A DNA stretch of 64,000 nucleotides, taken from contig OY970303.1 of the NCBI GenBank assembly GCA_963716255.1, positions 544,001-608,000 of the forward strand. The letters are read 5' to 3'. Shown one piece after another: positions 1-52,917 of this stretch. Under the pieces are notes generated by a model. That model had not been told where the DNA came from, did not search any database, and saw only the letters and a program-made list of their open reading frames with translations. Origin of the DNA: an uncultured Gemmatimonadales bacterium. GTDB taxonomy: Bacteria; Gemmatimonadota; Gemmatimonadetes; Longimicrobiales; Longimicrobiaceae. A program made the position numbers and the translations under genes. Position 1 is the first letter of the stretch, and every line of letters starts with the position of its first letter.

Positions 1-1043
1 ACGCCGCCGGGCGAGGTGGACTGGCGCCCCTGCTGCGCGTAGCCGTTGGGGCGGATGTAGAGCGAGCAGCGCGTGCCGGCCACCTGAGGCTGGCTGCGGA
101 AGCTCACCACGCTGATGGCTCCGGGCCCCTGTTCCCACTCGTCGTCCGGGGTCATGGCCTGCACCCACTTGCGCAGCTGCATCTGTGCCTGCGGCCGCTC
201 GCCCATCGTCATCTTCAGCAGGTCGAACATCTGCCGCGGGGGGTCGGGGACGCCGGCCACCAGCACGTCCAGCTTCATCTCGATCCCCTTCTCCGTGTCG
301 CGCAGCCCCAGGATGACCGAACCCTCAGGGAGGACGAAGCGCCCGCCCAGGACCACCCCGGCCGAGGCCAGGAGAGCGGGGAGCTGCGCGCCCACCCCCA
401 GGCGGTGCATCAGCGGCTCCAGGTCCAGGAGCCGGAGGTCGCCCCGGTGGAAGAAGTAGAGGCGCTGCGCCCCCTTCTGCCGCCCGCAGGCGATGGAGGT
501 GAAGATGGGGACGAGCCCGGGGAGGCACTGCACGGCCACGCGGGCCACGTGCTGCAGGTTGGGCGGGAGGCCGTCCACGTCGCCGGGGCGGAGCTCGTAG
601 TAGACCTTCGACTCCTGTACCCCCGCGGGGTCGACGCCCAGGCCGAACCAGGCCCCGAAGCGGGCGCCGCCGTGCAGCGCGGCGCCGCGGAAGTGCTCGC
701 TCCGCTCGTCGAACCAGCGCAGCGCCGCCGAGCCGAAGTTGCCGGAGACCACCCGGCGCATCTCGCGGCCGGCCTCCTGCTGCCGGGCGTGGGCGCCGGC
801 CCCGGGGCCCAGCGGCTCGATGTCGAGCCGCAGGGCGTCGGATGCGACCTCCGAGAAGGAGTGCTCGATCGGCGTATAGCCGGGCGTCAGCTCATTCTGG
901 CCGTAGCGCGGGTCCCCCACCGGGAGGTCGAGGCTGCGGTCCAGGAGCCCGCCGATGATCTCGCCCGGGTCCGGCGTCCCCAGCCGGCGCGAGGCGATCT
1001 GGAGGCGGCGCCGGGCCACCTCCGCGGCTCTTTGATTGGACAT
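1..1043 (-). CDS. Hypothetical protein with aromatic prenyltransferase (ABBA/DMATS-like) motifs; 3' end runs off the window
   Basis: Not in the ORF track because it has no stop in the window. Hand translation from ATG 1043 (MSNQRAAEVARRRLQ...) is open to base 1, with GGAGG upstream. Motifs LTPGYTPIEHSFS, ESKVYYE and CSLYIRP. Confidence 0.6.
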   Translation of the reverse strand, partial: MSNQRAAEVARRRLQIASRRLGTPDPGEIIGGLLDRSLDLPVGDPRYGQNELTPGYTPIEHSFSEVASDALRLDIEPLGPGAGAHARQQEAGREMRRVVSGNFGSAALRWFDERSEHFRGAALHGGARFGAWFGLGVDPAGVQESKVYYELRPGDVDGLPPNLQHVARVAVQCLPGLVPIFTSIACGRQKGAQRLYFFHRGDLRLLDLEPLMHRLGVGAQLPALLASAGVVLGGRFVLPEGSVILGLRDTEKGIEMKLDVLVAGVPDPPRQMFDLLKMTMGERPQAQMQLRKWVQAMTPDDEWEQGPGAISVVSFRSQPQVAGTRCSLYIRPNGYAQQGRQSTSPGG

Positions 1044-1062
1044 GGTTCAGATCCTCCCCGGC

Positions 1063-2688
1063 TCAGGAGAGCTGCGGGACGGCCGGGAGGCCGCCCAGCC
1101 CGGCCTGCTCCAGCGCGCCGCGCACGATCGCCGCCCGCGAGCCGTCGCCGTTGCCGTTCATCGGCGCGAACGCCGGGATGCTGGGCTGCGACTTGATGTC
1201 GACCGGGTCGGTGTACTTCTCCAGGCTCGCGTCCGGCGTGCCGGTAACCGCCAGCCAGCGCTCCACGTTGGCCACCAGGAAGGGGTCGGTGAAGTCGATG
1301 GCGTTGACCGCCGAGTTCCCGGCCAGCTGCGGCGCGCGGTCGGCCAGCCAGCGCATGATGGCGAAGCCGGTCTGCGCCATAGTGCGGTAGCGCACGGTGT
1401 TGATCGAGCCGCCCAGGTACATCGACGAGAGGCGGTCGACGAGCTGCAGGTAGTCGCGGACGCCGTATGCCGAGAGGACTTCGGACTGCTGCAGCATGTC
1501 GAGCACCTGCTGCACCAGCGCCTGTGTCTCCACCGCGGCGAAGTGCGCCACCCCGTAGCCGTGCAGCGACAGGTTGACGGCCAGGTCGCGTCCCGACTTC
1601 AGCGCCTGCTCGAAGGAGGTGCCGCGCGGCATCTGGCTGTTCTGCTCGCGCGACAGCACGCTGACGATGGAGCAGAAGCGCAGCCACAGGTCGCTGAACT
1701 CGCGGTTCAGCACCACCCCGCCCGCCGGCCCCTGGGCCAGCCCCAGGGCGCGGCCGTAGACGCCGCGGCGCTCCACCTCGGTGTAGCGGTTGGGGGCCTC
1801 GCGGATCCAGTTGTAGACCTTGTCGCCGGCCGGCCCGCGCGAGAGCGGGATCATCCCGATGGAGAAGTGCTCGGCGACCTTCTCGGCCACGGCGAAGAGC
1901 TTCATCTCCTCCAGCATCGCCGTGCGGTAGAGCCCCGCCACCGCCAGCACGTTGTCAGCGATGATGTCGACCGCCGTCCCCGCGTCCAGGTCGATGTCGC
2001 GGATGTCGATGTCCGACGCCGTCCCGTCCACGCGGCTGCTGAGCGCCTGCGTGAGCGCGGTGACGATCAGCCGGCGGATCTGCGGGTGGTCGGCCGGGAC
2101 GCGGTCGTCGATCATCCGCCCGGTTACCTCGGCCAGGAGGCGCGTGTGCAGCGTGGTCTCGAAGGCGGCGCCGTCGTCGGCGCGGCTGCTCCCCTCCTCC
2201 AAGAGGACGCGGAAGACCTCCCTGAAGAGCTCCTTGCTGGAGTTGTAGCGCTTGACGGCGTCGGTCACCGCCTCCACGAAGCGCTCGACGATCAGGATCT
2301 TCTCACCGTCCTGCTCGAAGGCGATGTCGTTGGGCCCGGCGGCCCCGGTGGCCAGGCGGCCGAGCGACGCGTCGGTGAAGTTGCGCGACAGGAGGATCCC
2401 GAAGATCGACGAGAAGAGGATCTTCTCCTCCTGCAGCAGCGCCTCGAGGATCTTGGGATCGGCCTTGGGGATCTTCCCGAAGCCGCCGGGGAAGTTCTCG
2501 GCCGAGGTGGTGGTGCTCCCGTCCGGGTCGAACGAGAAGTTCGAGCGGAGGAGGTGGCGGACTGCGAGGTACAGGCGCTTCCGCTGGCGGTTGCGCTCCA
2601 GGCGCCGCGTGGTCTCCGCGGGGGACTCGGCGGGGGTGGGGCGCTCGAAGAGGTCGGGGTAGTACTCTTTGCAGTTCGGGGCGACCAT
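1063..2688 (-). CDS. Conserved hypothetical protein, 541 aa, apparently mostly helical
   Basis: Long ORF with GC-rich third positions, GGAG upstream, inside the operon; no recognisable catalytic motif. Confidence 0.85.
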   Translation of the reverse strand: MVAPNCKEYYPDLFERPTPAESPAETTRRLERNRQRKRLYLAVRHLLRSNFSFDPDGSTTTSAENFPGGFGKIPKADPKILEALLQEEKILFSSIFGILLSRNFTDASLGRLATGAAGPNDIAFEQDGEKILIVERFVEAVTDAVKRYNSSKELFREVFRVLLEEGSSRADDGAAFETTLHTRLLAEVTGRMIDDRVPADHPQIRRLIVTALTQALSSRVDGTASDIDIRDIDLDAGTAVDIIADNVLAVAGLYRTAMLEEMKLFAVAEKVAEHFSIGMIPLSRGPAGDKVYNWIREAPNRYTEVERRGVYGRALGLAQGPAGGVVLNREFSDLWLRFCSIVSVLSREQNSQMPRGTSFEQALKSGRDLAVNLSLHGYGVAHFAAVETQALVQQVLDMLQQSEVLSAYGVRDYLQLVDRLSSMYLGGSINTVRYRTMAQTGFAIMRWLADRAPQLAGNSAVNAIDFTDPFLVANVERWLAVTGTPDASLEKYTDPVDIKSQPSIPAFAPMNGNGDGSRAAIVRGALEQAGLGGLPAVPQLS

Positions 2689-2764
2689 GGCGGGTCATCT
2701 CCAGTCCGAAGTGATGGGGTCGTTGCGGCCGTGAATTGCTACTGTCCCGGGGAACGGCTTCGGG

Positions 2765-4237
2765 CTACGGCGATCTCGCCACCTCGAGCGTCTCCCGCAC
2801 CGGCTCGGCCCATCCGGGCGGCTCCTCGAGCTCCTCGCTCGCGAGCTCCCGCTCCAGGGCCCTCAGCGCAGCCGTGGCATCCAGGATCCCTGCGCCGCAG
2901 CCGGCCGTGTCCGCGCCCCGTGGGAAGGGGCGCGCCGTGCGCTTCAGAAGGTCGCGGACCCCCTCGCCGTCGATCGGCCGGCTGTAGCGCGCCGACCTGG
3001 CCACCAGGAGGGCGGCGATGCCGGCCGCGAACGGCGCGGCGAAGGAGGTGCCGGTGTTGAACTGGTATCCGCCCACCGCGGTCGACGGGATGCTCTCGCC
3101 GGGGGCGCAGAGGTCTACGTGGTCGCCGCGGGTGGTGAACGAGGCGGGCGTCTCGTCGGCCCCCACGGCGCCCACGGCGATCACGCCGTCCAGGCATGCC
3201 GGGTAGTAGCGGGCGCCGGTGCCGCTGTTGCCCGAGGCGGCGACGAGCACGCACCCGTGCCGGCGGGCGTAGTCGACCACCTCCTTGTGGGGGCGCGGGT
3301 CCTTTTCGCGCAGCGCGCTCTCGGGCGTGCCGAAGGAGAGGTTGAGCACCTTGGCCCCCAGGTCCACCGCGGTCTTCACCGCCAGATCGATGTCGATCAG
3401 GCTTCCCAGCGCCGTCGCGTCGCGGCGCCCCACCATCCGGGCCCCGGCCAGGGCGCGGCAGGCCATCACCCGCAGGTCTCCGCCGCACCCCTTCGGGAGC
3501 TTCTTCCCCCGCGCCGCGATGATCCCGGCGCAGGCGGTGCCGTGGCCCACGATGTCGTCGGGGACGCGGTCGGGGCGGGAATGGTCGCCCACCAGGCGCA
3601 TGGAGCGCGGCACCTGTTCGCCCGGGAGGTCCACCGTGTCGAAGCCGGGGCGGAGCGCGCCCTCCAGGTCGGGGTGGTGCAGGTCGATCCCGCTGTCCAC
3701 GATGGCCAGGATCAGCGCGCTGTCGCCCGGCTCCATCGCCAGCGCCTCGGCGGCGTGGATCATCCGGTGCCCGTACCAGGGGTCCTCCGGCCGCGCCCGC
3801 CTGGCGCCCTGCGCCCCGAACGGCGTCACCGAGAGGTAGACGGGGCTCACCGACTGGATGGTGGCGAGCGAGCCCACCTCCTCGATCAACGACACCAGGT
3901 CCGCGTCGGGGTCCACGTCGATGCGGAAGGTGCGCGAGAGGCCGGTCTCCTCTTCCAGGTCGCTCCAGCGGTCCTTCCGCTCGCCGGGCGAGCCGATGCG
4001 GTTCGCGGGCGAGAAGGTGCGGACGACGCGGAGCGCGGGGGAAAAGCGCTTGACCGCGCGGTCGACCTGGCCGCCGTCGAAAGAGAGCGGCGCCACGGCG
4101 AGGCCCGACGCCACGTCGGCGCGGTGGGGCACCCGGTCGGGCGCTTCGCCGGAGGCGACGCGGATCACCAGGCGGCCGCGGAGCGCGAGCCGGGTGCGCT
4201 CGGGCTCCCAGGGGCGGTCCGGCGCGGATTCAGTCAT
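2765..4237 (-). CDS. S8 (subtilisin-family) serine peptidase with N-terminal pro-region, no signal peptide
   Basis: Triad motifs AIVDSG, GHGTACAGIIAA and GTSFAAP; oxyanion motif AASGNSG. Confidence 0.95.
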   Translation of the reverse strand: MTESAPDRPWEPERTRLALRGRLVIRVASGEAPDRVPHRADVASGLAVAPLSFDGGQVDRAVKRFSPALRVVRTFSPANRIGSPGERKDRWSDLEEETGLSRTFRIDVDPDADLVSLIEEVGSLATIQSVSPVYLSVTPFGAQGARRARPEDPWYGHRMIHAAEALAMEPGDSALILAIVDSGIDLHHPDLEGALRPGFDTVDLPGEQVPRSMRLVGDHSRPDRVPDDIVGHGTACAGIIAARGKKLPKGCGGDLRVMACRALAGARMVGRRDATALGSLIDIDLAVKTAVDLGAKVLNLSFGTPESALREKDPRPHKEVVDYARRHGCVLVAASGNSGTGARYYPACLDGVIAVGAVGADETPASFTTRGDHVDLCAPGESIPSTAVGGYQFNTGTSFAAPFAAGIAALLVARSARYSRPIDGEGVRDLLKRTARPFPRGADTAGCGAGILDATAALRALERELASEELEEPPGWAEPVRETLEVARSP

Positions 4238-5102
4238 GGTCGGCTCCGTTCCCCGTGGGCGCCGCCAGCGGCACCGCCACCAGCTCCGTCGCCATCCGCG
4301 GGTCCCCCGCCTCGCGGACGGCCCGGCCCGGATCGCGGAGCTCCGCGGGGGCCACCAGGTCGGCGGGGAGGTCGTAGAAGCCCATCGCCCGCGTCCCGCC
4401 CACGCTCACCTCCACCTGCCCCTCGCGGTGGTGCGACATCGGGCGGACCAGGAGGGAGTTGGAAGTTGCCTCCAGCACCTCCACCGGCTCGCCGGAAAGG
4501 AGGACCTGGGGGATGCCTTCGGACGAGAGGTTGGCGCCGCGGACGCGCAGAAGGCTCCGCCCGCCGCGCCTGACCACCTCGGTGCTGCTGACCGCCGGCC
4601 GCGAGGCCTGCTGGAGGGCGGCCTGCAGGCGGAGCATCGGGATCCCGGCGTAGGTCTCCACCGAGCGCGGGTCGGTCTCCTGCGAAAGGCGCTTGAGCTG
4701 TCCCACGGTGCGCACGCCGATCATCTCCAGCCGCCTCCGGTCCTGGTCGCTGAAGGCATCCTCGCCGGGGAGGTCCTGCAGCCCGCGCGGGTCCTCGTCC
4801 ATCCCCACCGAGAAGGTGTTCTCCTCCACCATCTCCCTGGTAATGGTGGTGAAGTTCAGGTGCACGGTGCTGGCGCCGTCCTCGTTGGGCCCGGCGTGGC
4901 GCACCAGCACGCGCCCCGTGGGGTCCGACTCCCAGAAGACGCGCAGATCGATGCTGAGGTCCTTGATGGCGAAGGTCAGCGGCCTCCCGGTGCGCGCCTT
5001 GAGCGCCAGGCCGTCCTGTGCGCGGTCGAGCTGCGCCGAGAGCGCCTGCACGAACTCCTCTACCGGGAACGCCCGACCCTGGCGCTGCGCCTGTCCGTTC
5101 AC
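4230..5102 (-). CDS. Hypothetical protein: Trypco2-like N-terminal domain, possible IPT/TIG-like C-terminal domain
   Basis: FPVEEFVQALSAQLDRAQ...LTFAIKDLSIDLRVF helix-then-strand pattern; LRVRGANL...VLLSGEPVEVLE; overlaps both neighbours. Confidence 0.6.
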   Translation of the reverse strand: MNGQAQRQGRAFPVEEFVQALSAQLDRAQDGLALKARTGRPLTFAIKDLSIDLRVFWESDPTGRVLVRHAGPNEDGASTVHLNFTTITREMVEENTFSVGMDEDPRGLQDLPGEDAFSDQDRRRLEMIGVRTVGQLKRLSQETDPRSVETYAGIPMLRLQAALQQASRPAVSSTEVVRRGGRSLLRVRGANLSSEGIPQVLLSGEPVEVLEATSNSLLVRPMSHHREGQVEVSVGGTRAMGFYDLPADLVAPAELRDPGRAVREAGDPRMATELVAVPLAAPTGNGADHD

Positions 5103-5332
5103 GATCCCTCCTCGGCCAGGCGCATGCGGAGGCGCCCGTGCGGAAGGCCGAAGCCGGTGGCCAGCATCCCGCGCGGAAGCGACATCTCCACCTCGCCGGC
5201 GCGAACGATGCGTGCCTCGATCGGGAGGTCGAGGGTGACCTCGGCGACGGAGAGGCCGAGCCCCGGCGCCTCGGGGGGAGCCACCGCGAAGGCGTCGGCC
5301 AGCTGGTCGATGAGCTGCTCGATGCGCGTCAT
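5099..5332 (-). CDS. Small hypothetical protein, 77 aa (MTRIEQLIDQLADAF...)
   Basis: True start is the ATG at 5332 inside track ORF 5099..6994; ATGA and GTGA overlaps with the flanking genes. Confidence 0.8.
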   Translation of the reverse strand: MTRIEQLIDQLADAFAVAPPEAPGLGLSVAEVTLDLPIEARIVRAGEVEMSLPRGMLATGFGLPHGRLRMRLAEEGS

Positions 5333-6462
5333 GACGGGCCTCCGGCCGGGGCCGGCGCGATCGCCGGCTTCTGCTCGGCGGGCTGCTCGGCGCCAGGACG
5401 CAGGCGGGAGTGGCGGTTGATCAGCTCGATGGCCTGCGAGTCGGCGAAGCGCTCCAGGTTGAAGGTCTCGCTCCGGAAGCGGATGGCGACCTCGCCGACG
5501 AGGTTCGCCTTGATTGCGACGTCGGCCTGTGCGTTGACGCTCACGGTGGAGACCTTGGTGGAAACCCCGCCGCTGGAGCCCGTGTCGCGGCTGGCGATCC
5601 CGCTCTGCACCGCGGCGGCGTTGTCGGTCAGGTCCACCTTCACCGCCTCGCGGGCGGTGGCGTGGAACTGCAGCCGGGCCTTGATCTGTCCGTCCTGGAT
5701 GACGATGCGGTTGACCCCCAGGAGCACCATGGTCGCCAGCGTCTGCATCCGCTCTTCGGCCATCCCCATCCGCCCGGCCTCGAGCAGCGCCCCCTCCGCC
5801 AGCTCCTCCGTCAGCTCCTGGCCGGCAAGCTTGTACTGCTCCAGCCACGCGGGCGAATCGGCGTCGTCCTTCCTGCGGGGCTTGAGCTTCGGCGAGCCGG
5901 TCGAGCCGGCGCTCGGGACGACGACGACCAGGTCCTGCGGATGGCGCTCGGCCAGGGCGAAGCGCACCTGGTTGGGCGAGACGTTTTCGCGTGCGAACTG
6001 GTCGACGGTCTGCGCGATGCTGGCCACCAGCTTGGCGTACTCGCGGATCTGCTGCGCCGTGGCGTCGACGATGGCCTGGAAGGTCCCGTTGATCAGCTCG
6101 GCGACGAACGACGGGAAGTCGACCGCCTCGAGCGCGGCGCGCGCCCGCTGGCCGATCACCTCGGTGCCGGCCGGCTTGGCGGCGGTCGCGCCCGGCGGCG
6201 GCTGCACTGGCTGCGGCTGCTGCTGCGAGGGAGGAAAGCCGGCACCGCCCTGCATCCGCTGCAGGTCGGCCGGGGTCTCGAACGCGACGGCGTACGGGTC
6301 GTACGCCGCGGCGGACGCGACCGCGGGCGGCGAGAGGGCGCCCTCGATGCGGCGGAGGTCGTCCTCCAGCGCCTGACGCTCGGCGTACGACAGGTTCTCG
6401 TAGCCGGACAACTGGCGGATGCTGCGCGTAGCCGCGAGGGCCGCGGCGGCCGGGTTGCTCAT
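5329..6462 (-). CDS. Conserved hypothetical protein, 377 aa
   Basis: Coupled ORF; core AVDFPSFVAELINGTFQAIVDA followed by a beta-rich C-terminus. Confidence 0.85.
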   Translation of the reverse strand: MSNPAAAALAATRSIRQLSGYENLSYAERQALEDDLRRIEGALSPPAVASAAAYDPYAVAFETPADLQRMQGGAGFPPSQQQPQPVQPPPGATAAKPAGTEVIGQRARAALEAVDFPSFVAELINGTFQAIVDATAQQIREYAKLVASIAQTVDQFARENVSPNQVRFALAERHPQDLVVVVPSAGSTGSPKLKPRRKDDADSPAWLEQYKLAGQELTEELAEGALLEAGRMGMAEERMQTLATMVLLGVNRIVIQDGQIKARLQFHATAREAVKVDLTDNAAAVQSGIASRDTGSSGGVSTKVSTVSVNAQADVAIKANLVGEVAIRFRSETFNLERFADSQAIELINRHSRLRPGAEQPAEQKPAIAPAPAGGPS

Positions 6463-6465
6463 CGC

Positions 6466-8505
6466 CTAGCCCAGCACGTAGGTCGTGGCGTCGTCGAAGT
6501 CTGTCCGGTTGCTGTGCAGTGCCGCCAGCCGGCCCGCGAAGCGCGACCCCCGCGCCTCGTCCACCAGCCGCTGCAGCAGCTGGTCGCGGCCGGGGACAGC
6601 CACCGGCGACCGCGAGCCGATGGCCCGCAGCGCGCCGACAAGCGCGGCGTGGGTGCGCGGGCCCCAGCGGCCGTCGGCTCCCAGGTAAGGGGCCTGGCTC
6701 TGCTGGAACGAGCGGATGTCGGCGTGGCCCAGCGCGGCGAGCGCGGCGCGTCGGTCCTCCTCGGTGCGGACGGGCCCGCAGGCGCGCATCACCCAGCTCA
6801 CCCCGCCGCCGCTCCCCATGTGGATGCAGCGATCCCACAGCATCGCCAGCGAGCGCGCGTTGTCGAAGCCCAACCAGAGGGCCACGCGGAGGTTGGGGTC
6901 CACGTAGTCGGTGACCGCCACCTCGTTCTGCGCGAAAGTCGCGTGCGGCACCTGGCCTGCGGCGCGGAAGCGATCCATCCACTCGCGGTCCCACAGCGGC
7001 TTCCCGCCGACGGGCGCCACGCGCGCCTCGGGGTCTTCCGCGGTGGTGACGTGAAGCAGCTCCTGCGCGTGCGGGCCGAAGAGGCGGTCGAACCGGTGCT
7101 CGGGCGCGAGCGCAGCGCCCAGTGACTGCTCACGGCGCTGGATGGCCTGGAGGACGCGGCCGAGCGCCCCGCTGCGCTGCGTGAACTGGATGAAGCCCCA
7201 GGAAAGGCCGATGTGGTACTTGTGGTAGGCCGGATGCCGGGGGTCGTTGTACTCGTTGTCGGGGTTCACCGCGGAGTAGCCGCCGTGCCCGCTCTCCGCC
7301 ACCGCGATCACGCGGAGGATGCGCACCTTCTCGGGAATGTCGAGTGCGACGACCGCCAGCGCCTGCGCGGCGCGGCCCACCGGGAGCGGGTCCTCCTCCG
7401 GCTCCTCCTCGCTGTAACCCGGGTCGCGCCCACCCAGCGCCTCGGCTTCCGCGGGCGCGCCGGGATACGCCCCGGCTTCCGCCGGCGCGTCGGCCACCTC
7501 CACGCCGCCGCCGTCCGACACCCTGTCGACGGGACCGTAGCCGCCGCCGTACGCGAGCTCTTCGCCGGGGCCGGTGTCGAGCGGCGGCTCCAGGTCGATC
7601 TCGCCGACCGCGCCGTAGAGCGAGGCGGCGTCCTCGTATCCGCCGTAGGCGCCCTCGCCCTCGTCCTCGTCGCCGTCGTCCGCATCGTCGTGGACGGAGC
7701 CGTAGCCGTCACCCACCCACTCCGGCGATTCGCCCGTGCCGTCGCCGTACTCGCCGAAGTCGGGAGCGGAGGCCGAGGCCTCCGAGTAGCTGCCGGCCCC
7801 CGACGAGTCGTAGGCGTTCGGGTCGCCGTTCTCGTATCCCATCCCTCCGGCGGGGGCGTAGTCGTCCTCCGCGTCGCGGCAGTCGGCGCCCAGCTCGTGG
7901 GCGTGGTCGCCAAGCCCCGCCTGCGCGGCCACTGGGTCGCCCCCTTCGTCCTGCCACAGCTCCTTCGGGTACCCGTCGTCGTACTCGCCGCTCTGCGGGG
8001 CGCTTGCCGCGCGGGAGGCGGCCAGCGCCTCGTCGCCGCCCCAGGTGAGCGAGCCGGCGCTCGCGGCGCCGTAGCTGTCGGGAGTCGAGGCGAGCCCGCC
8101 CAGGCGCGAGCGGTCCAGCCCGCGCCCGCTGAAGTCGCTGGAGACGAGGATGCTGGGAGCACGGTCCAGCGTCTGGGGCGAGATGGTGAACTCGGGGGCA
8201 CCGCCGTACCGGCTCTCGTAGGTGGCGAGCGCGTAGTAGATGCGCGGCGCGCCCACGAAGCGGCGCAGCTGTTCGGGCGGTATGAACCAGGCGGTCTGGC
8301 CGTCCGGCGCACGCATCAGCCCGTTGGAGCGGCTGGAGTAGAAGTTTTTCGGCGAGCGGTAGCGCTGCCAATCGGTGTGGAAGAGGCGAGGGTCCGTGGC
8401 GCACGCCACCTCGAAGAAGCGCGTGGGCGGCACGTTGACCGCGAACGAGGCCACGGGAAAGCGGTCCGAGATCTCGGCGCGACAGGGGACGATCTGCGTT
8501 TCCAT
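6466..8505 (-). CDS. Multidomain protein: N-terminal globular domain, acidic Tyr/Gly-rich linker, C-terminal lysozyme-like and peptidoglycan-binding-like region
   Basis: IAVAESG...GLSWGFIQFTQRSGALG resembles muramidase-type domains; FQQSQ...LGADGRWGPRTHAAL resembles PG_binding_1. Confidence 0.7.
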   Translation of the reverse strand: METQIVPCRAEISDRFPVASFAVNVPPTRFFEVACATDPRLFHTDWQRYRSPKNFYSSRSNGLMRAPDGQTAWFIPPEQLRRFVGAPRIYYALATYESRYGGAPEFTISPQTLDRAPSILVSSDFSGRGLDRSRLGGLASTPDSYGAASAGSLTWGGDEALAASRAASAPQSGEYDDGYPKELWQDEGGDPVAAQAGLGDHAHELGADCRDAEDDYAPAGGMGYENGDPNAYDSSGAGSYSEASASAPDFGEYGDGTGESPEWVGDGYGSVHDDADDGDEDEGEGAYGGYEDAASLYGAVGEIDLEPPLDTGPGEELAYGGGYGPVDRVSDGGGVEVADAPAEAGAYPGAPAEAEALGGRDPGYSEEEPEEDPLPVGRAAQALAVVALDIPEKVRILRVIAVAESGHGGYSAVNPDNEYNDPRHPAYHKYHIGLSWGFIQFTQRSGALGRVLQAIQRREQSLGAALAPEHRFDRLFGPHAQELLHVTTAEDPEARVAPVGGKPLWDREWMDRFRAAGQVPHATFAQNEVAVTDYVDPNLRVALWLGFDNARSLAMLWDRCIHMGSGGGVSWVMRACGPVRTEEDRRAALAALGHADIRSFQQSQAPYLGADGRWGPRTHAALVGALRAIGSRSPVAVPGRDQLLQRLVDEARGSRFAGRLAALHSNRTDFDDATTYVLG

Positions 8506-8566
8506 GGGAGCGCCCTGGCGGTGGACGGGGGAGTCCGGGGAAAGGGGTCCAGCGCGCCACTCAAAG

Positions 8567-8581
8567 GCAGGCAGCGTACCA
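8567..8581 (-). promoter_or_regulatory. Sigma-54 -24/-12 promoter of the left operon
   Basis: Minus strand TGGTACG-CTGC-CTGC versus consensus TGGCACG-N4-TTGC; exact GG-N10-GC spacing; about 60 nt upstream of ATG 8505. Confidence 0.75.
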
Positions 8582-8640
8582 CGGGTGGAGAGCAGTGGGA
8601 ACGGCCTGTCGTTTCGCGAAAAATGGGCATGCTACTCAGG

Positions 8641-8669
8641 TGTAAAAGATTGCATTGCAGTTTGATACA
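8641..8669. promoter_or_regulatory. Candidate enhancer (bEBP-binding) palindrome
   Basis: TGTA-N6-TGCA-T-TGCA-N6-TACA imperfect dyad in an AT-rich patch 60-90 nt upstream of the -24 box. Confidence 0.55.
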
Positions 8670-8843
8670 AGTATCTGTGCGGAGCATGAAATCGGAAAAC
8701 TCGCACGGAGTGGAGTCCGGCTCCCGGGCAGCGTTCCGTGCACGGACGGGCAGGAGGATGCCCCTTTCGTCGTGGCCGATCGTGCAGCCGCTCCCACGGA
8801 AAGCGTCCCCTGGAGGGGGCCAGGGTGCGCGGGGCCCGGACCG

Positions 8844-8898
8844 GGAAAGAACGGAGCCGGCGGAGGAAGTTGCTTCCTCCGCCGGCTCCGTTCTTTCC
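8844..8898. terminator. 26-bp perfect hairpin downstream of the sigma-54 activator gene
   Basis: GGAAAGAACGGAGCCGGCGGAGGAAG-TTG-exact reverse complement; no clear U-tract. Confidence 0.55.
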
Positions 8899-8942
8899 GG
8901 CCTGGTCTGCGTCCCGCGCGGCCCGGCGCGTGGCTGGTGCGT

Positions 8943-9947
8943 TCACTCCCGCTGGAGCTTCTTGAAGATGGTGCGGACGTGGATGTTGAGGCGCTCGGCG
9001 GCGCGCGTGCGGTTTCCTTCCTCCGCGCGCAGCGCCGCGTCGATGATGGCGCGCTCGCAGTGCTCCACCGCCTCGGCCAGCGAGAGGCCGCTCTTGGCGA
9101 CCAGGTCCCACAGGTCGTCCGTCATCTCGCGCGACGCGGGCGCCGGCGCGGGACAGTCGTCCGTGGGGATGCCGAGGTCCTCCGCGTCGATCATCTCCTT
9201 CTCGGAGAGAAGCGCCGCCCGCTCTATGCAGTGCTTCAGTTCGCGCACGTTCCCCGGCCAGTCGTAGCGGTGCAGCGCCGCCAGCGCTCGCGGCGTGAAG
9301 CCGTGGCCGGGGCCCACCGTCTCATAGAGGAAGTGGCAGGCCAGCAGCTCGATGTCACCGCCGCGCAGGCGCAGGGGCGGGAGGGCGATGCGCATCACCT
9401 CCAAACGGTAGAGGAGGTCGGCCCGGAACTCGCCGCGCCGCACGCTCTCGGCGAGGTCGCGGTTGGATGCCGCGATCACCCACGTCCGGATCTGCTCCAC
9501 CCGGTCCGAGCCCACGCTGCGGAATTCGCCGCTCTCCAGGAAGCGTAGCAGGCTGGCCTGCACCTTCGGCGACAGCGAATCGACCTCGTCCAGGAACAGC
9601 GTCCCCCCGGAGGCCGTGCGCAGCAAGCCGTTGCGGGCGTCGCGCGCCCCGGTGAAAGCGCCGCGGGTGTGTCCGAACAGCTCGTCCTCGGCGAGCGTGT
9701 CTGGAAGCGCTCCGCAGTGCACCACCACGAACGGCACGTTCCCCGGCTGCCCGCGCAGGTGCAGGGCCTGGGCGATGATTTCCTTTCCCGTGCCGGTGGG
9801 GCCGGTGATCAGCGTGGTGCGGCGGACGCGCGCCACCGCGTCCAGGGATTTCACCACATCGCGGATCACCGGGGACTCCCCGACGAGGCCGAGTGGCCCG
9901 GTGCGGAGCACCCGCTGGGCGCGCACGCTTTCCATTGCGATGGTCAT
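8943..9947 (-). CDS. Sigma-54-dependent transcriptional activator (AAA+ plus Fis-type HTH) with no N-terminal sensor domain
   Basis: GPTGTGKE Walker A, GAFTGA, LFLDEV Walker B, WPGNVREL, GNRTRAAERLNI. Start ATG 9947 or 9935. Confidence 0.93.
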   Translation of the reverse strand: MTIAMESVRAQRVLRTGPLGLVGESPVIRDVVKSLDAVARVRRTTLITGPTGTGKEIIAQALHLRGQPGNVPFVVVHCGALPDTLAEDELFGHTRGAFTGARDARNGLLRTASGGTLFLDEVDSLSPKVQASLLRFLESGEFRSVGSDRVEQIRTWVIAASNRDLAESVRRGEFRADLLYRLEVMRIALPPLRLRGGDIELLACHFLYETVGPGHGFTPRALAALHRYDWPGNVRELKHCIERAALLSEKEMIDAEDLGIPTDDCPAPAPASREMTDDLWDLVAKSGLSLAEAVEHCERAIIDAALRAEEGNRTRAAERLNIHVRTIFKKLQRE

Positions 9948-10934: not shown

Positions 10935-12127
10935 GTGGATCACCCCGGCTGAGGTGATGGGTATCGGGAGGAGAACTTCTCCCGAGCCTTGGCGGTTGTG
11001 AAACGCCACTGAATCGTGGCCTTGCTGCCGTTGCGGTCGCGGCACCAGACGGCGGTTTCACGCTGCACGACTTCCATGCTGGGCAGGCGCCGGTCCAAGC
11101 ATTGAGTGCCGAGCACGGAGAACTCCACCTCGGCCATGTTCAACCAGCTTGCATGCTTGGGCGTGTGGTGCAACTCCAGGCGCTTTGCGATCCGGCTTGC
11201 TTCCTCGGGCGCGAACGCCTGGTAGAGCGAGGCCGGCGTGTGCGTGTTCAGGTTGTCCAGCACCACGCGGACCTTCTCCGCCTCCGGAAAATGCACGTCC
11301 ACCAGATCCCGCATGCAGTGGGCGAAGTCGATCGCGGTGCGCCGCTGCGTGACCTTGACCTCTCGCCAGGCGGTGTCGGGGCTGAAGAAGAGGAAGAGGT
11401 TGCACGTGCCTTCGCGCCGGTACTCGTAGTCGAACCGCTCGGCCTGCCCCGGTCGCGCCGGCAGCGGCATGCGCACCTCGGACAGAAGTTGCAGAGGCAT
11501 CTCGTCAAAGGCCACACGCGGCCGCTTCGGGTCGTTCGGCTCTGCATACAGGTCGAGCACGTCCTCCATCCGCCAGACGAATTCGGCCGTGATCTCCGGG
11601 ATCAGCCACTGCTGGCGCTGCCACGGCTTCGTCTTGCTTTTTTGAGCGTGCGGCGCACCGTCTCATCCGAGATCGAGTCCACCGCCCCCAGTTCCACCAG
11701 CCGGTCCGCGAGCATCTGCATGCTCCAGCGGGCGCGCCCACCAGGCACGTCGCTGCAGGCCAGCGCCAGGAGCAGGGCCTCCGCTTTGCCTGTCAGCTTC
11801 GGCGGCATCGGCGGGCGGGGTTTCTCTGAGAGAGCCGCCTCCAGCCCTTCTTCCACGAAGCGCTTGCGGATGCGCTCCACCGTAGCGACCCCGACGCCCA
11901 CGCCCGCGACGATCTGCTCGTCCGTGGCACCCTCGTCGGAGCGCAGCACCACCAGAGCGCGTTTGATCCGCCGCGCGCTTGCCTTCCCCTTGCGCGTGAG
12001 CACAAGCAGATCGCTGCGCTCCTGCTCCGTCAGCTTCACCTTGTACCGCTTCGTCATCCTTCGGCTCCTGTACAACTGCGTACCCAAAGCCGAAGGATAC
12101 CCCATCAACTCACTCGTGGTGCCCCAC
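10935..12127 (-). mobile_element. IS630-family insertion sequence
   Basis: Imperfect terminal inverted repeats (GTGGATCACCCCGGCTGAGGTGATGGG / GTGGGGCACCACGAGTGAGTTGATGGG), TA duplicated in CTAG context, split transposase. Confidence 0.95.
10940..12057 (-). CDS. IS630 transposase: orfA (HTH, 12057..11602) and orfB (DDE) joined by a -1 frameshift
   Basis: AAAAAAG run at 11637-11643; -1 shift gives LKKSKTKPWQRQQWLIP...MEDVLDLY; FDE, LDNLNTH and SWLNMAEVEF motifs. Confidence 0.92.
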
Positions 12128-18074: not shown

Positions 18075-18293
18075 TCACTGCGACGTGACGCACTCGAGGG
18101 TGCAGTTGCGGCACTCGCATTCGAGCAGCTCACCATTCTTGACGCAGCTGCAGAAGTCGCAATTGGGTACAACCTTGCACCCCTCCCCAGGATCGGAGGC
18201 GAGACTCACGGACGGGAATGCCATCGACCCGAGCGCTGCCAGTGCAACGAGGGCGTAGGCGAGTACTTGCGCCCGGATACGGATTCGGGGCAT
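18075..18293 (-). CDS. Secreted Cys-rich peptide 1 (72 aa; 8 Cys in the predicted mature part)
   Basis: AAAGGAGG RBS; signal peptide ending PSVSLA; mature SDPGEGCKVVPNCDFCSCVKNGELLECECRNCTLECVTSQ. Confidence 0.85.
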   Translation of the reverse strand: MPRIRIRAQVLAYALVALAALGSMAFPSVSLASDPGEGCKVVPNCDFCSCVKNGELLECECRNCTLECVTSQ

Positions 18294-18452
18294 GCGGCCT
18301 CCTTTGTAGGGGTAAACTTCGCCAGAGAGTGCGTTGCCGAAAACCATCGGTCGATTCGGGCGTCGGACCGTTTAGCGGAACGAAGCGTGCGATCTGATGC
18401 GCCGGCTGTGCGACAAGAGCAGGGAATATCGTCCGATCACTCGCTGAGATGC

Positions 18453-19024: not shown

Positions 19025-19414
19025 TCAACCCTTTAAACGCCTGCATTGCACGCGCCGGAAGTTGCCTGTGGGGTGACGCGAGCCACTGCGCCAGTTCCCG
19101 GACCTGGTCCGGTGCCAGGCGGGTAACGGCCCGCTGCAACTCGACGGTGAGTTGCCGGTGCGGGGCTCCCCGCGCGACTGGTGGCGGTCGATCTCCAGTT
19201 TCTCGCGCACGGACGCGTGCGCCACGAGGTTGTCGCGGAGTTCGGCGTAGTCGCGCCCGGTCCCAATCCTGTCGGGGAGGTTGCAGAGCAGGATCCCGTG
19301 CTCCTCCTCCAGCACCGCCCGCTCCCGCGTGATGTACCCCACGTGCCGGGCCGACGCGCCGACGGTCCCCGCCCGGAAGCGGATGAATGTCCCACCCCGC
19401 GCCGCGGCGCTCAC
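19025..19414 (-). pseudogene. Truncated relaxase (N-terminal fragment)
   Basis: GTGA-coupled to mobC; ARHVGYITR resembles the catalytic-Tyr motif I; plausible sequence ends near 19155 with no HUH motif. Confidence 0.65.
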
Positions 19415-19803
19415 CTCAGCCGCTCACGGATCAGGTCCACCGTCTCCTCCACCGCCCGCGCCGCCTCCTGCAGCTCGGCGTCGGTGGGCGGGAGCGCCGA
19501 GCCACCCACGTCGGCGGAGTTCTCCCGGTGGGCGAGCTGATTGAGGTTCACCCCCACCTTGCGGAGCTGGAACATCAAACCTTCCAGCACCTCTACCTCC
19601 ACGGGGGAGGCGCGGTGCGGAATGCGCTCCGCAGCCCCTTCAGCGGCCCCCAGCTCAGCGAGGAAGCGGGTGTATGGCCTCCCGGCCCTCCGGGCGTTCT
19701 CGATGATTCTGGACGCCTCATCGTCGGTCGCGCGGACGAAGAACGGGACGGGATACCGCCCGGCCAACCGCCGCCCCTTCCGCTTCTCCAGTTCGTCGGA
19801 CAT
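19411..19803 (-). CDS. mobC: Relaxosome accessory protein MobC
   Basis: RHH-like N-terminus (FFVRATDDEASRI), LRKVGVNLNQLAH signature, GGAGG RBS. Confidence 0.85.
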   Translation of the reverse strand: MSDELEKRKGRRLAGRYPVPFFVRATDDEASRIIENARRAGRPYTRFLAELGAAEGAAERIPHRASPVEVEVLEGLMFQLRKVGVNLNQLAHRENSADVGGSALPPTDAELQEAARAVEETVDLIRERLR

Positions 19804-19893
19804 ACGCACCTCCGCGTGTCTGGGTCGGGGTGGTTCCCCTTGAGCGCGCAGCGCGAATGGGGCAGGACGGGCCGCCGCGAAGCGGCAGGACCG

Positions 19894-19922
19894 GCATCGT
19901 GCTAGCACGATGCGTATCCTGC
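19894..19922 (+). promoter_or_regulatory. Origin of transfer (MOBP-type nic site)
   Basis: Perfect 20-bp palindrome GCATCGTGCTAGCACGATGC followed by G-TATCCTG^C, matching the RP4-type nick consensus; lies upstream of mobC. Confidence 0.8.
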
Positions 19923-20213
19923 ACTCACGCCGCCCCATCCCAGATACCTCCGGAGCGCCTGGTGCGTTGTATCCCCGTCCGGACGCCAGACCGCTCCCGT
20001 CGACACGACGGGACGGCATCGCGCGGCCTCCCCCGCAGCGGCAGCTTCGCCGCGACGCTACCCGGGACCCACTCCCCTCAGCAGCGCAGCCCTGGAGGCC
20101 TGACGCGCCAGAGAGCATGCGCCAGCCCGTCGTATAACACATTCCTGAATCGCGAGGTACTACCGGGTAGACCCATGCAGGACGTGGTCGCGGGAACAAC
20201 TCGGGAGGCACCG

Positions 20214-20684
20214 ATGACCGCATACGAGCGACTGCTGCGCTTCGTGGAGGATGCGCCGCGGGGAACCCTGGTGCCGGTGGAAGAGCTTCGCGCCATCCTG
20301 GCCGACGGACAGGTTGGCGCCGCTGAGGCCAAAGGAGTGCGCGACCTAACTGCTGCGGAAGCCGCGGACTGGCTGCACCGGCACCTGGGCGGAAGAAAGC
20401 GCACGCCCGCCGCAGTTCGGAAGATGATGCGGACGGGACTGCGAGGTGTGGTGCTTCAGTCCTTTTCGTTCGGGCGAGAGCGCCGCACGACGGAGCAGGA
20501 TCTGGAACGCTTCCTCGGGGAGGTCCGGGGCAGGTGTCGCTCGGTCACGGGGTCTCCTCTGCCGCCCCGCGAGACTTCCGGAGCGCTCCCGCCTAAGCGA
20601 GACGTGGATCCCGCAGACGAAATCGCCGCAGCCAAAGCAAGCTTCGGGATCTTCCGGCCTGAGCAACGGGCCGCGGGTGCGTGA
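20214..20684 (+). CDS. Excisionase-like winged-HTH protein
   Basis: DLTAAEAADWL...TPAAVRKMMRTG...RRTTEQDLERFL; GGAGG RBS; convergent on the integrase. Confidence 0.65.
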   Translation: MTAYERLLRFVEDAPRGTLVPVEELRAILADGQVGAAEAKGVRDLTAAEAADWLHRHLGGRKRTPAAVRKMMRTGLRGVVLQSFSFGRERRTTEQDLERFLGEVRGRCRSVTGSPLPPRETSGALPPKRDVDPADEIAAAKASFGIFRPEQRAAGA

Positions 20685-20715
20685 CACATCGGTCACACAC
20701 CCGCGCTCTCCCTCC

Positions 20716-22314
20716 CTACGCTGCCTGATCTGTCCTCGCCCCCTGTGGCTGCCCGGCTGCTCCCTCCGCGCGGCGGAAGCGGGCGAACCGGCGCGTCCCA
20801 TCCTTCCACACCGCCCCGCTCTCCACCAGCCTGTCCCGGCAGTAGTAGAAGGTCCCGGCAGGCAGGCCGGACGCGTGCTCCCACTCCTTCGCCGTGAGGC
20901 CACGCGGAGGGAGAAGAGCGAGGACAGCTTTCAGCTTCGGCGTCAGTTCCCAGGGTGACCTGCGCTCCGGGTCCGCGCCGAGACGATGGGCGTACTGAGC
21001 GGCCCATTCGCTCCACCGAAATTCCAGGTGGGACCGCGACGCGCGCAGGCGCGTGTGCCTGAAGTACCGCCGGTCGATCATCTCCAGGGAGCCGTGCCCC
21101 ATCTCCGCCTGGAGCTTCATGGGCGTCATGGCCTGGCCGTGCTCGTCCAGCGTGTACGTCCGGTGCGTGCAGTACGTCACCCGGAAGCGGCGGGTGCGAA
21201 CTGAGCCCTCCACGAACCCACAGAAGCCGGCGATCCGGTCCAGGGACTTGCGCCAGTCACCGAGCGGGACCGTACCGTCGCTCCCTTCGGCGGGGAAGAG
21301 GAGCGGCCCGCGGGGGGCGTTGGGGCCGGCCAGGTACTCCGCCAGGATCTCGGCCAGTTGAGGGTGCAGGGGGATGACACGCTCCCGGTAGTCCGTCTTC
21401 AGCCGGTTCTGGTTGTCCTCCGCCCGTACGGTGGGATTCGTCCGGACGACGACCGCACCCCGCGGAAACTCGGGATCGCCAGGCAACCGCACGTCGGACA
21501 CACGCACGCCGGCCCTCTCCGACTCGATCACGCCGGTCAGCAGGTAGAACCCGAGCAGAGGATAAAGGGGGAGCCCAGGCCGGTCAGGCGGATACAGGAC
21601 CCGCGCGCCCTCCAGGAGCAGCGCCGCCTCCCCCACCTCCAGGTGCTCCGTGGGACTCGGGTCGACGGAGGGGAGATCCGTGCGCTCGGTCACCCAGTTC
21701 CGGTCGATCCGGCCCTCCGCGACCGCGGCTTGAAGCAGTTCCCCGAGCGTGTCCAGGTACCGCCGCTGCGTGGTGCAGGAGAGCTTGCCCCGCCGGCCGC
21801 CCGCGCGGTTTCCCTGACACTCGGGCGGCCGGGTGCGGAGTTCCTCCATGTAAGCGCGGATCTCCGCGGGCCCAAGCTCCGTCAGCCGCTCGCGTCCTCG
21901 CTGGGCGAAGAACCGCGCCGCGTGCACCAGCCGCTGCTCCTGGACCCTCAACCAGCCGCGGGTAACCTTCTTTCGACCGTGGCGGTTCTCCTTTTCAGCG
22001 AGATACCAGCCGGCGAAGGTCGCGATGCGGTCCAGCGGGTCCTCAGCCTCCAGTCGGGGCGCGATCCCGTCCGGGTGCGTCTTTCGCAGTTCGCGCATCT
22101 CCGCGAGCCGCTGCCCGTACAGGATCGCCGCCGTGACGGCGTCGGCCGTCGCGTACCTCTCACCCGGGGCGACCAGCGCCTCCTGCCTGCCGCCCCAAAG
22201 GTTCCACTCCCGCGCGTCGATATAGGCGCGCCCGCGCTTCCAGTAGAGCCGCGCGTGCGGCTCCTGCCCTGCGCCTGTCGCTTGTGCCGCTTCGCGGCCG
22301 ACGGACTTGCGCAT
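20716..22314 (-). CDS. Tyrosine recombinase/integrase
   Basis: Core-binding-like region (LSCTTQRRYLDTL), RLKT, RVIPLHPQL, RRFRVTY, MGHGS, RRY; next to the tRNA 3' end. Confidence 0.85.
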   Translation of the reverse strand: MRKSVGREAAQATGAGQEPHARLYWKRGRAYIDAREWNLWGGRQEALVAPGERYATADAVTAAILYGQRLAEMRELRKTHPDGIAPRLEAEDPLDRIATFAGWYLAEKENRHGRKKVTRGWLRVQEQRLVHAARFFAQRGRERLTELGPAEIRAYMEELRTRPPECQGNRAGGRRGKLSCTTQRRYLDTLGELLQAAVAEGRIDRNWVTERTDLPSVDPSPTEHLEVGEAALLLEGARVLYPPDRPGLPLYPLLGFYLLTGVIESERAGVRVSDVRLPGDPEFPRGAVVVRTNPTVRAEDNQNRLKTDYRERVIPLHPQLAEILAEYLAGPNAPRGPLLFPAEGSDGTVPLGDWRKSLDRIAGFCGFVEGSVRTRRFRVTYCTHRTYTLDEHGQAMTPMKLQAEMGHGSLEMIDRRYFRHTRLRASRSHLEFRWSEWAAQYAHRLGADPERRSPWELTPKLKAVLALLPPRGLTAKEWEHASGLPAGTFYYCRDRLVESGAVWKDGTRRFARFRRAEGAAGQPQGARTDQAA

Positions 22315-22500
22315 ACCTCGCTCCTAGCCCGGGCCAGGTTGAGCAATCGCGGCGAACCCCTCTCCGGAGAGGGATTACCACGTGAACGCGAGGTGCGTTG
22401 TATCCTGTGTTACCGGAGCTTGTTACCCGCAGCCCGATTCGAGCTACAAAACAAACGCCCGCAGGTGGCTAAACAGCCATCCTACGGGCGTTTGGGGACA

Positions 22501-22575
22501 TGCTCCCGGCAGGACTCGAACCTGCGACCTTTGGTTTAGGAAACCACTGCTCTATCCTGGCTGAGCTACGAGGGC
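22501..22575 (-). tRNA. tRNA-Arg(CCT), CCA not encoded
   Basis: GCCCTCG TA GCTC..GAGC A GTGGT TT CCT AA ACCAA AGGTC GCAGG TTCGAGT CCTGC CGGGAGC A cloverleaf. Confidence 0.95.
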
Positions 22576-44998: not shown

Positions 44999-45005
44999 GC
45001 GCCGG

Positions 45006-52379
<7,374 letters not shown>

Positions 52380-52917
52380 GATGGACCTCGCTTCTTGCAG
52401 TTGTTGGTACGGGAGGCAGGGCACTTCGCGCCGGGCGGGGCGACGGAATCCGTCGCCGTGTCCGGCGGAGCTCGTTCTGCTTCACCACGGGGTGCAGGCT
52501 GCTACAATCTACGCGGCAGCGCCGGAAACGGACAGGGAGGGGGGCGCCGGCCGGGCGCGGCACGGATCCGCTTGCAGCGCAACGACCTGGCCCGGCCCCG
52601 AGGCGGGCCCGTCCCGCCTCCGGCCGGTGGAGCGGAGGCCCGGTTCCCGTCGACCATGGCCGCGAGGACGAGCACCGGGGCCGGCAGCCGGTTCGACGGA
52701 GCAAGTGGGGCGCGGCCTCCGCGGCGCGCATGTCCCACTCCCGGTCCGGCTGCACGCACGCGGCCGGCGAAGCCCGCGTTCAAATCCACACACGACAACG
52801 AGTTGAGCAGCCGTGGGCGGCGTCGCTCCAGGTGGCGTGGCGGCTGCGTGCATGGGCTCGCGCCGGGCGGACCGACGCCCGGAACCGACGAAACGAACCG
52901 ATGCTCCGCAGGAGGAC

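Follow-up and report, generated by a model that had tools for sequence, protein, structure and literature searches.

A 14-gene operon was found to begin within, and to run beyond, a 64,000-nt window from an uncultured Gemmatimonadales bacterium (assembly GCA_963716255.1, contig OY970303.1; the window, meaning that whole stretch, is G000:C1:544001-608000). The operon belongs to none of the known systems it was compared with, and its mechanism is uncertain; by analogy, it would work like a Pepco or beta-pore module coupled to lysins. The reading favoured here, tentatively and at a little under an even chance, is that its products form a protease-matured, mixed-subunit beta-barrel pore which is released with wall hydrolases against other bacteria, much as complement acts with lysozyme.

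Extent and layout of the operon

An earlier note on this DNA had described seven co-directional genes with four tight junctions and had proposed that the operon continues beyond base 1. Coordinates and gaps agree for the seven minus-strand genes in the window (a 3-nt gap, then overlaps of 4, 4 and 8 nt, with gaps of 76 and 19 nt at the other two junctions), and analysis beyond base 1 located seven more genes lying wholly outside it (genome 530774-543921); the observation was right but covers half of a 14-gene unit. The complete unit occupies genome 530774-552505 (21.7 kb), all on the minus strand, with 13/13 junctions of -8 to 115 nt. Its gene order is g01 (679 aa), F377, g03 (77), g04 (290), S8 (490), H541, g07 (361), F457, F390, F370, H306, F471, g13 (1038) and g14 (1310). 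Besides five paralogues of a family called F and two of a family called H, it encodes a subtilase, a pair of Pepco/Trypco2-like proteins, a DMATS-like prenyltransferase and two wall-hydrolase proteins of modular build. Because they lie outside the window, the earlier note missed the hairpin family with its five paralogues and the 1310-aa multi-hydrolase protein, and it is the sight of them that moved the earlier suggestion of a protease-triggered conflict system, kept here as a conflict reading, to a pore with wall hydrolases. The features are as follows, in window coordinates unless prefixed G000:C1.

8943..9947, minus strand: sigma-54 activator (bacterial enhancer-binding protein, bEBP); PF00158 E 4e-57, HTH_8, motifs intact
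8567..8581, minus strand: sigma-54 (-24/-12) promoter-like site, GG-N10-GC, recurring in 7/9 other loci
6466..8505, minus strand: g01, 679 aa, GH46/lysozyme-like with a peptidoglycan (PG)-binding-like repeat, from profile and family matches
5329..6462, minus strand: g02, F paralogue 1, 377 aa, short hairpin without Trp
5099..5332, minus strand: g03, 77 aa, helix plus beta-hairpin, weakly Trypco2-like (PF19631 E 0.083, under cut-off); start taken as the ATG at 5332
4230..5102, minus strand: g04, 290 aa, Trypco2/Pepco-like N-terminal domain, helical middle and IPT/TIG
2765..4237, minus strand: g05, S8 subtilase with N-terminal extension, 490 aa; PF00082 E 4e-38, triad motifs
1063..2688, minus strand: g06, H paralogue 1, 541 aa, mostly helical; AlphaFold2 (AF2) pLDDT 88.7
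<1-1043 (whole gene G000:C1:543958-545043), minus strand: g07, DMATS/ABBA-like prenyltransferase, 361 aa; TIGR03429 E 0.008
G000:C1:542548-543921, minus strand: g08, F paralogue 2, 457 aa, longest hairpin
G000:C1:541372-542544, minus strand: g09, F paralogue 3, 390 aa, tip Trp299
G000:C1:540263-541375, minus strand: g10, F paralogue 4, 370 aa, tip Trp303
G000:C1:539346-540266, minus strand: g11, H paralogue 2, 306 aa
G000:C1:537931-539346, minus strand: g12, F paralogue 5, 471 aa, tip Trp308
G000:C1:534699-537815, minus strand: g13, 1038 aa, no family
G000:C1:530774-534706, minus strand: g14, 1310-aa multi-enzyme protein, from Pfam domains and catalytic motifs

The names first given to several products hold as weak-to-moderate family matches: Trp_DMAT in 11/36 members of the g07 family, Trypco2 in 12/22 of the g04 family, and GH46 in 9/15 and PG_binding_1 in 5/15 of the g01 family. 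A crude scan for hydropathy and Tat motifs likewise agrees that obvious signal peptides are absent, no operon protein having a 19-residue segment above 1.72 on the Kyte-Doolittle scale or a Tat-like start.

Gene order is conserved across phyla

That the set forms one machine is upheld by its gene order: F-Pepco-like-Pepco-like-S8-H-prenyltransferase-F..-H-F recurs in genomes of Myxococcota, on a Burkholderia plasmid and in contigs from metagenomes. Scattered homologues had been named beforehand as the outcome that would speak against a single machine, and synteny was instead conserved. All four fetched genome loci with H541 retain the order as far as contigs and flanks extend, and so does the Burkholderia pyrrocinia plasmid, where a sigma-54 activator precedes the operon and the g01 slot is taken by an amidase/C92/C70 protein. 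A wider survey covered 88 loci selected by F or H, including two near-duplicates and many that are incomplete at contig ends; adjacent F genes were fused in it, and it serves order and presence only. S8 was followed by H 36 times, H by the prenyltransferase 39 times and the prenyltransferase by F 59 times. Among the 30 loci of at least 10 kb, H was present in 30, S8 in 27, g07 in 26, g04 in 26, g03 in 20, C70 in 14 and GH46 in 13. A minimal form with one F, S8-H-F-(g01N-like)-g03-g04 without g07, was seen in L093 (a Tolypothrix plasmid), L104 and L105.

The F family comprises 1981 representatives at 50% clustering, and its distribution is patchy. It was found in 2/201 genomes of the operon's own phylum, in 0/8 congeners (61-96% complete; a stricter first look) and in 4/101 genomes of the phylum of G201, where two of the four are short fragments. 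These fragments (L106 9753-10151 and L107 9895-10227) are stand-alone and hold the first long helix only with an Asp run at its end; other operon genes are absent from the surrounding 10 kb or so. F is present in four plasmid records; no F relative was found among 38 candidate stretches in viral contigs, and a phage origin is unsupported. The Burkholderia plasmid copy also carries a DUF3467 gene at its start (L092 7667-8074) and, after the operon, an adenylate/guanylate cyclase and a patatin-like phospholipase (L092 24056-28653).

F proteins carry long hairpins, many of them with aromatic tips

The five F proteins share 25-47% pairwise identity, and the nearest named homologues of F377 and H541 are from Longimicrobiaceae (72-80% identity), which makes Gemmatimonadota the probable phylum of the host. 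Neither F nor H gave a meaningful match in Pfam, NCBIfam, PHROGs, PADLOC or PDB sequences. The earlier statement that no function could be named for the 377-aa and 541-aa proteins stands, no family, fold or paper having matched them in the searches. The AF2 model of F377, built on 5 sequences, is shallow and poor (pLDDT 48); it begins with two paired helices and a disordered linker, continues with two long helices separated by a small insert, and has two strands either side of an unresolved segment, the variable hairpin. Across the family, the hairpins are polar, of 77-125 residues, or about 76-126 residues from anchor to anchor (138/226 sequences parsable), and contain about 30% Ser/Thr/Gly and 17-26% charged residues. 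In the mid-length class (85-103 residues), a Trp or Phe lies at most 6 residues from the midpoint in 90/91 hairpins (mean 39 and maximum 56 in 500 shuffles), and 92/96 of the Trp residues sit at the tip. The short class has a tip Trp or Phe in 9/18 (shuffled mean 3.3, maximum 8). In the short and 85-91 classes one face of the hairpin is moderately apolar; in the 92-103 and long classes it is so weakly or not at all.

In a quick tree without bootstrap, made from 100 F rows of 25 loci plus the operon's own five, rows grouped by operon position. Clades like F377 (16 rows, SH-aLRT 99), F457 (19 rows, 96), F390/F370 (28 rows, 99) and F471 (18 rows, 100) were recovered, the remaining 19 rows being a third subtype and the minimal form. 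Five F genes were matched in each of G000, G201, G202, G203 and G204. The keeping of position-specific subunits across phyla points to an ordered mixed oligomer of F paralogues. An Asp-Pro-aromatic motif, possibly a docking motif, occurs in 98/204 F linkers (12 expected) and, in many g07 homologues, at the C-terminal tail.

Long Ser/Thr/Gly-rich hairpins with aromatic tips are familiar from beta-pore toxins and the complement membrane attack complex, in which paralogues take fixed roles, proteases activate and lysozyme acts in synergy. The operon shares such hairpins and tips, and position-fixed paralogues, and protease activation and synergy with lysozyme would be further likenesses; unlike those toxins, it lacks obvious signal peptides and co-encodes its hydrolase cargo. 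Searches of Pfam and PDB, and with the low-confidence model, matched F to none of MACPF/CDC, aerolysin, leukocidin and protective antigen, in sequence or in fold. The named family nearest to F by ESM features is DUF2589 (PF11655; 0.76), which likewise has a helix, an insert, a strand, a long polar hairpin and a return strand, and also occurs in tandem copies; F differs in its extra N-terminal helical domain. Four DUF2589 sequences share the F-like plan, two of them with a Gly-Trp-Gly tip, although the hhalign comparison, made against these 4 sequences, was weak (probability 10%, E 0.003), the PF11655 model found nothing in five F-carrying genomes at E<=10, and PF11655 was not among the best 25 of 28 families for 109 F members. 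DUF2589 itself, to judge from passing mentions in the literature found, appears to be uncharacterised. DUF2589 genes stand as two copies per locus in both genomes where they were found (L117 8357-11519; G292:C127:7872-8914), and in L117 the two are separated by a third open reading frame (ORF) that has a similar helix at its N-terminus.

Of the H proteins, H541 is better modelled. It is mostly helical, has 263 homologues and shares 29% identity with H306 across the C-terminal domain. It gave no match in the ESM atlas and no Foldseek match at E<=0.001 in PDB or BFVD (best VIA Z 5.7), which is not proof of a new fold.

Pepco-like proteins stand beside a stand-alone subtilase

Pepco proteins, which correspond to Trypco1/2, are described as 9-10-mer beta-barrels that kill cells after protease cleavage (10.1101/2025.11.14.688446). 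In the operon, g04 and g03 score 14.2 and 13.6 bits against Trypco2, under the Pfam cut-off of 24.2, and TIG is weakly matched in 10/22 members of the g04 family; one g04 homologue, in G379, reaches 30.7 and so passes the Trypco2 cut-off. A g04-versus-Trypco2 profile match of 96.7% was discarded as circular, 1 of its 3 Trypco2 rows being a g04 homologue. The position of g03 is conserved across loci, the g04 gene overlaps the S8 gene, and g04 was followed by S8 28 times in the 88 loci. As noted earlier, the catalytic triad motifs of g05 are intact, and in family scans it is a stand-alone S8 with no fused sensor domain.

The likeness to Pepco modules lies in a helix and beta-hairpin domain beside a protease, and the protease-activated beta-barrel serves as the model for the mechanism proposed below. 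Pepco itself is a homo-oligomer of about 117 aa that is paired with a sensor-fused trypsin or caspase and kills its host, as set out in the part of the preprint drawn on here, unlike the operon, where the Pepco-like domain is fused to TIG, the S8 is free of a sensor and eleven further genes are present. Trypco was named in PMC7159879, but the architectures in the portion of that paper used here differ. The idea that F is an enlarged Pepco was dropped, there being no profile similarity.

Predicted wall-hydrolase cargo and a candidate cleavage motif

The g01 protein comprises an unnamed N-terminal domain (about 180 aa), an acidic Tyr-rich linker (residues 190-375: 26% Asp/Glu, <2% Lys/Arg, 13 Tyr; similar in homologues), a GH46/lysozyme-like domain and a PG-binding-like repeat, and its C-terminal profile matches chitosanase structures (E 4e-5). 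The g14 protein carries C70, VanY, phage-tail lysozyme and DUF2272 domains (Pfam E 2.5e-28, 6.4e-9, 3.4e-13 and 5.8e-19) with catalytic motifs present, and an alpha/beta-hydrolase-like region by motif reading; DUF2272 is placed among NlpC/P60-CHAP-like wall amidases (PMC10318531). The g13 gene was seen in 6/22 metagenome loci of at least 10 kb. In operon-linked loci the cargo slot is fixed and its content varies (Amidase_2, Amidase_3, VanY, C92, DUF2272, lysozyme, GH46). More widely, 71 long proteins share the C70 domain of g14, with amidase, M15, C92, CHAP, DUF2272, trypsin, OmpA and PG-binding domains shuffled around it; 44 of the 71 were scanned for domains, and operon linkage is established solely for the operon-linked loci.

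A recurrent motif was seen in the linkers of these proteins, its exact pattern varying slightly between counts. This motif, small-small-hydrophobic-small or in short small-small-hydrophobic, precedes 11/19 internal C70 domains (1000 shuffles: mean 4.7, maximum 11). It also precedes 29/49 other domain starts, which were hand-picked from the scan after C70 and most near-duplicate VanY rows had been dropped (shuffled mean 14.1, maximum 25), against 8/49 inside domains (shuffled mean 8.8). It lies directly ahead of the GH46 domain of g01 and occurs in 168/204 F linkers (100 shuffles: mean 97, maximum 111). The motif is a likely cut site of the subtilase and fits the P2-P1 preferences of subtilisin. 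Cargo C-termini in L092, L018, L024, L042 and L085 share an unnamed beta-rich domain after C70, preceded in some by a hydrophobic helix; it could be a further membrane-active or targeting module.

Hydrolases of these kinds also raise the question of a payload cluster for a type VI secretion system (T6SS) or an extracellular contractile injection system (eCIS) encoded elsewhere, since C70, DUF2272 and amidase domains are found among secreted effectors (PMC10318531) and G000 has VipB (G000:C1:6326137) and phage-sheath-type genes (4850611-4852240), albeit far from the operon. The locus itself contains no sheath, tube, spike, baseplate, VgrG or PAAR family match (Pfam, NCBIfam and PHROGs), VipB was not found in 3/5 carriers tested, and G094 (100% complete, 20 contigs) has the minimal operon with neither VipB nor sheath. 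Because of that one genome a contractile carrier is unlikely to be required, and such a payload cluster is considered very improbable.

The prenyltransferase-like protein g07

Every profile score of the g07 family lies under its cut-off: the best reaches 20.1 bits against 25, Trp_DMAT has a best E of 4.7e-4, and TIGR03429 gives 15.4 against 163.85. For one member a DMATS structure was the top PDB match (E 0.086), with the E60-R72 stretch alone aligned and the remaining residues assigned by spacing; a second member gave none. Conserved positions are E60 (33/36), R72 (29/36), K146 (27/36), Y148 (26/36), R194 (29/36), R325 (33/36) and Y329 (33/36). In kind and spacing, E60, R72, K146/Y148, R194 and R325/Y329 appear to correspond to Glu106, Arg119, Lys187/Phe189, Arg248 and Arg378/Tyr382 of TleC (PMC4786772). 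As far as the sources consulted describe the DMATS/ABBA indole prenyltransferases (TleC, MpnD; PDB 6ZRX), g07 appears to resemble them in a putative catalytic Glu and an Arg/Lys/Tyr pattern of similar spacing, and differs in its sub-cut-off scores and in having no small-molecule pathway nearby. Its substrate is likely a protein.

A speculative candidate for that substrate is the tip Trp of F. Tips lack Trp in the three minimal loci L093, L104 and L105, and L093, G094 and G327 yielded no g07. The link stays speculative because the minimal loci appear to be one lineage, L093 and L104 grouping together in the F tree, and because a Trp-tipped DUF2589 protein occurs in G297, a genome without g07.

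An S8 protease together with an ABBA-type prenyltransferase is the pairing of cyanobactin pathways. A cyanobactin-like maturation, in which the subtilase and a prenyltransferase of that fold (PMC13290415) release and prenylate peptides cut from large proteins, was therefore considered, and a PatA/PatG model does match at E 3e-26, but far under its cut-off (TIGR03895, 92 against 421 bits). A short precursor, a heterocyclase and a transporter are all absent, the only precursor-sized gene in the operon being the Trypco2-like g03; the core consists of large folded proteins, and the minimal form dispenses with the prenyltransferase. This explanation is regarded as the least probable of those weighed.

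A candidate sigma-54 promoter and its linked activator

The bEBP at 8943-9947 has intact Walker A, GAFTGA and Walker B motifs and adjoins the operon, both as described earlier. It consists of AAA+ and Fis-HTH only, with the AAA domain starting at about residue 20 and no N-terminal regulatory domain, and it adjoins the operon in L004, L016, L020, L039, L082, L084, L092, L104 and L109. The sigma-54 promoter claimed from the window needed outside evidence: two-mismatch matches in the window alone are not above chance (30 observed, 61 expected). A site does recur 38-106 nt ahead of the first gene in 7/9 other loci, with a score of at least 6 in 5/9, a level attained by 0.45% of random 150-nt genome windows. 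The site at 8567-8581 is credible because of this recurrence.

A proposed mechanism and the evidence against it

In the proposed mechanism, the linked activator would turn on the sigma-54 promoter, and all products would be made in the cytoplasm, as the crude scan for signal peptides suggests. The subtilase would then cut after the small-small-hydrophobic motifs enriched in the hydrolase linkers, maturing the particle, and could also cut the F linker behind the N-terminal helical domain. By the example of Pepco and beta-pore toxins, g03, g04 and the F paralogues would oligomerise side by side, each F contributing one hairpin with a polar stem of an estimated 65-115 A and an aromatic tip. The H proteins, encoded next to F, might be chaperones or a collar for the neighbouring F, and the prenyltransferase may, speculatively, lipidate tip tryptophans. 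The particle would exit through lysis of the producer, a route proposed because export signals are missing and the cargo is highly variable, and would then breach and lyse neighbouring bacteria.

Several observations weigh against a pore of this kind. By profile there is no detectable homology between F and the Pepco-like domain, and the structural search with F377 reached a best Z of 4.8 and matched no pore-forming toxin fold, although the model is of low confidence and the result is not proof of a new fold. Tip enrichment is absent from the long hairpin class (10/29 against 10.3 expected); mid-class hairpins are polar (18% hydrophobic, 26% charged), best-face hydropathy is 0.15/0.26 for hairpins of 92-103 residues and -1.2/-1.4 for the long ones, and this hydropathy is weak for a membrane-spanning barrel. 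On the side of the cargo, the putative GH46 catalytic glutamate of g01 is replaced or lost in several homologues, and the small-small-hydrophobic motif, which was defined after inspecting the sequences of relatives that are not independent, is missing before Amidase_3 (0/5), VanY (0/2) and OmpA (0/2). The analysis identified no export route, no receptor and no immunity gene, and the available evidence gives no direct distinction between outward and self-directed action.

Because the hairpins are polar, F might instead build a non-toxic structural assembly such as a tube, a fibre, a coat or a channel in the envelope, for which the hydrolases would remodel the producer's own wall to give room or a way out. 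Polar hairpins fit a soluble tube equally well, the paralogue order is fixed, IPT/TIG and PG-binding domains are present, and envelope machines commonly come with wall hydrolases. The aromatic tips, however, point toward membrane contact, the variety of the cargo goes beyond what a tailoring enzyme would need, and the operon is missing from most relatives searched; this alternative is judged unlikely.

The main rival to a released particle is self-lysis, which we consider rather unlikely while ranking it above the other alternatives. Here the barrel would enter the producer's own membrane from the cytoplasmic side and let the hydrolases through to its own wall, giving a death like that caused by holin and endolysin, in phage defence or development. 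It accords with hydrolases that stay cytoplasmic for want of export signals (crude scan), with no immunity gene having been seen, and with the role of Pepco-protease pairs as suicide modules of anti-phage defence (10.1101/2025.11.14.688446). Against it, the conserved core has no sensor or NTPase gene, a dedicated sigma-54 activator is in control, and PADLOC 2.0 yields only generic subtilase matches, to g05, with none for the other 13 operon proteins. Moreover, self-lysis would need just one conserved endolysin, and the cargo instead shuffles many wall-cutting chemistries. Outward action of a released pore-plus-hydrolase particle is therefore favoured over self-lysis because of the variety of cargo, the sigma-54 control and the absence of a sensor.

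A more detailed version of the released particle is correspondingly more doubtful. In it, four or five paralogues would make up an ordered mixed-subunit beta-barrel around a nucleus of Pepco-like subunits, a DMATS-type enzyme would prenylate the Trp residues at the hairpin tips, and the subtilase would arm the structure by cutting shuffled hydrolase polyproteins. Taken as a whole, we hold this combination improbable; it would be a bacterial counterpart of complement plus lysozyme, made from folds not yet in the PDB, and a new class of interbacterial weapon.

Novelty and significance

The earlier statement that the combination matches no recognised system still holds, none having been found in the searches; none was found in the literature either, although subscription journals or preprint supplements could contain one. 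The 22-kb machine spans Gemmatimonadota-like and Myxococcota genomes and Burkholderia and cyanobacterial plasmids, and its two core families have no matching solved fold. Should the released pore-plus-hydrolase particle be real, it would add a new class of weapon to T6SS, tailocins and bacteriocins, in soil groups about whose means of killing little is known. The operon could also offer a handle on DUF2589 and extend Pepco biology past suicide defence, and the hydrolase cassettes are a source of lytic enzymes. The predictions are assembly of an ordered hetero-oligomer, subtilase cleavage at a defined motif and prenylation of protein tryptophan. The last, if true, would be a DMATS-type enzyme lipidating a folded protein, which falls outside the three protein/peptide prenyltransferase groups set out in the part of PMC13290415 drawn on here.

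Genomic surroundings

The operon is flanked by two tRNA-Arg(CCT) genes that differ from each other and are inverted, one at window 22501-22575 and the second at genome 530188-530263, just past g14. Beside the former, within window 19025-22575, is a 532-aa ORF (20716-22314) that is presumably integrase-like, with nearby ORFs that we take to be MobC-like, relaxase-fragment-like and excisionase-like. Residence in an integrated element is not shown, because no att-like direct repeat was found and the G+C content equals that of the genome. A two-ORF transposase (HTH_32 and DDE_3; window 10940-12108), presumably IS630-like, lies about 1 kb upstream of the activator. Between tRNA and flanking genes, L001 contains a lower-G+C ORF of 353 aa (1042-2103, plus strand) with no PADLOC match and an N-terminus that we take to be DUF4062-like. 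Small Cys-rich ORFs were seen on the minus strand at L001 626-922, with a weak defensin-like match (E 0.004), and at window 18075-18347. Farther along, window 44138-52424 holds a 2472-aa ORF, probably an ordinary multi-HAMP sensor kinase module, beside a second ORF that is presumably CheR-like.

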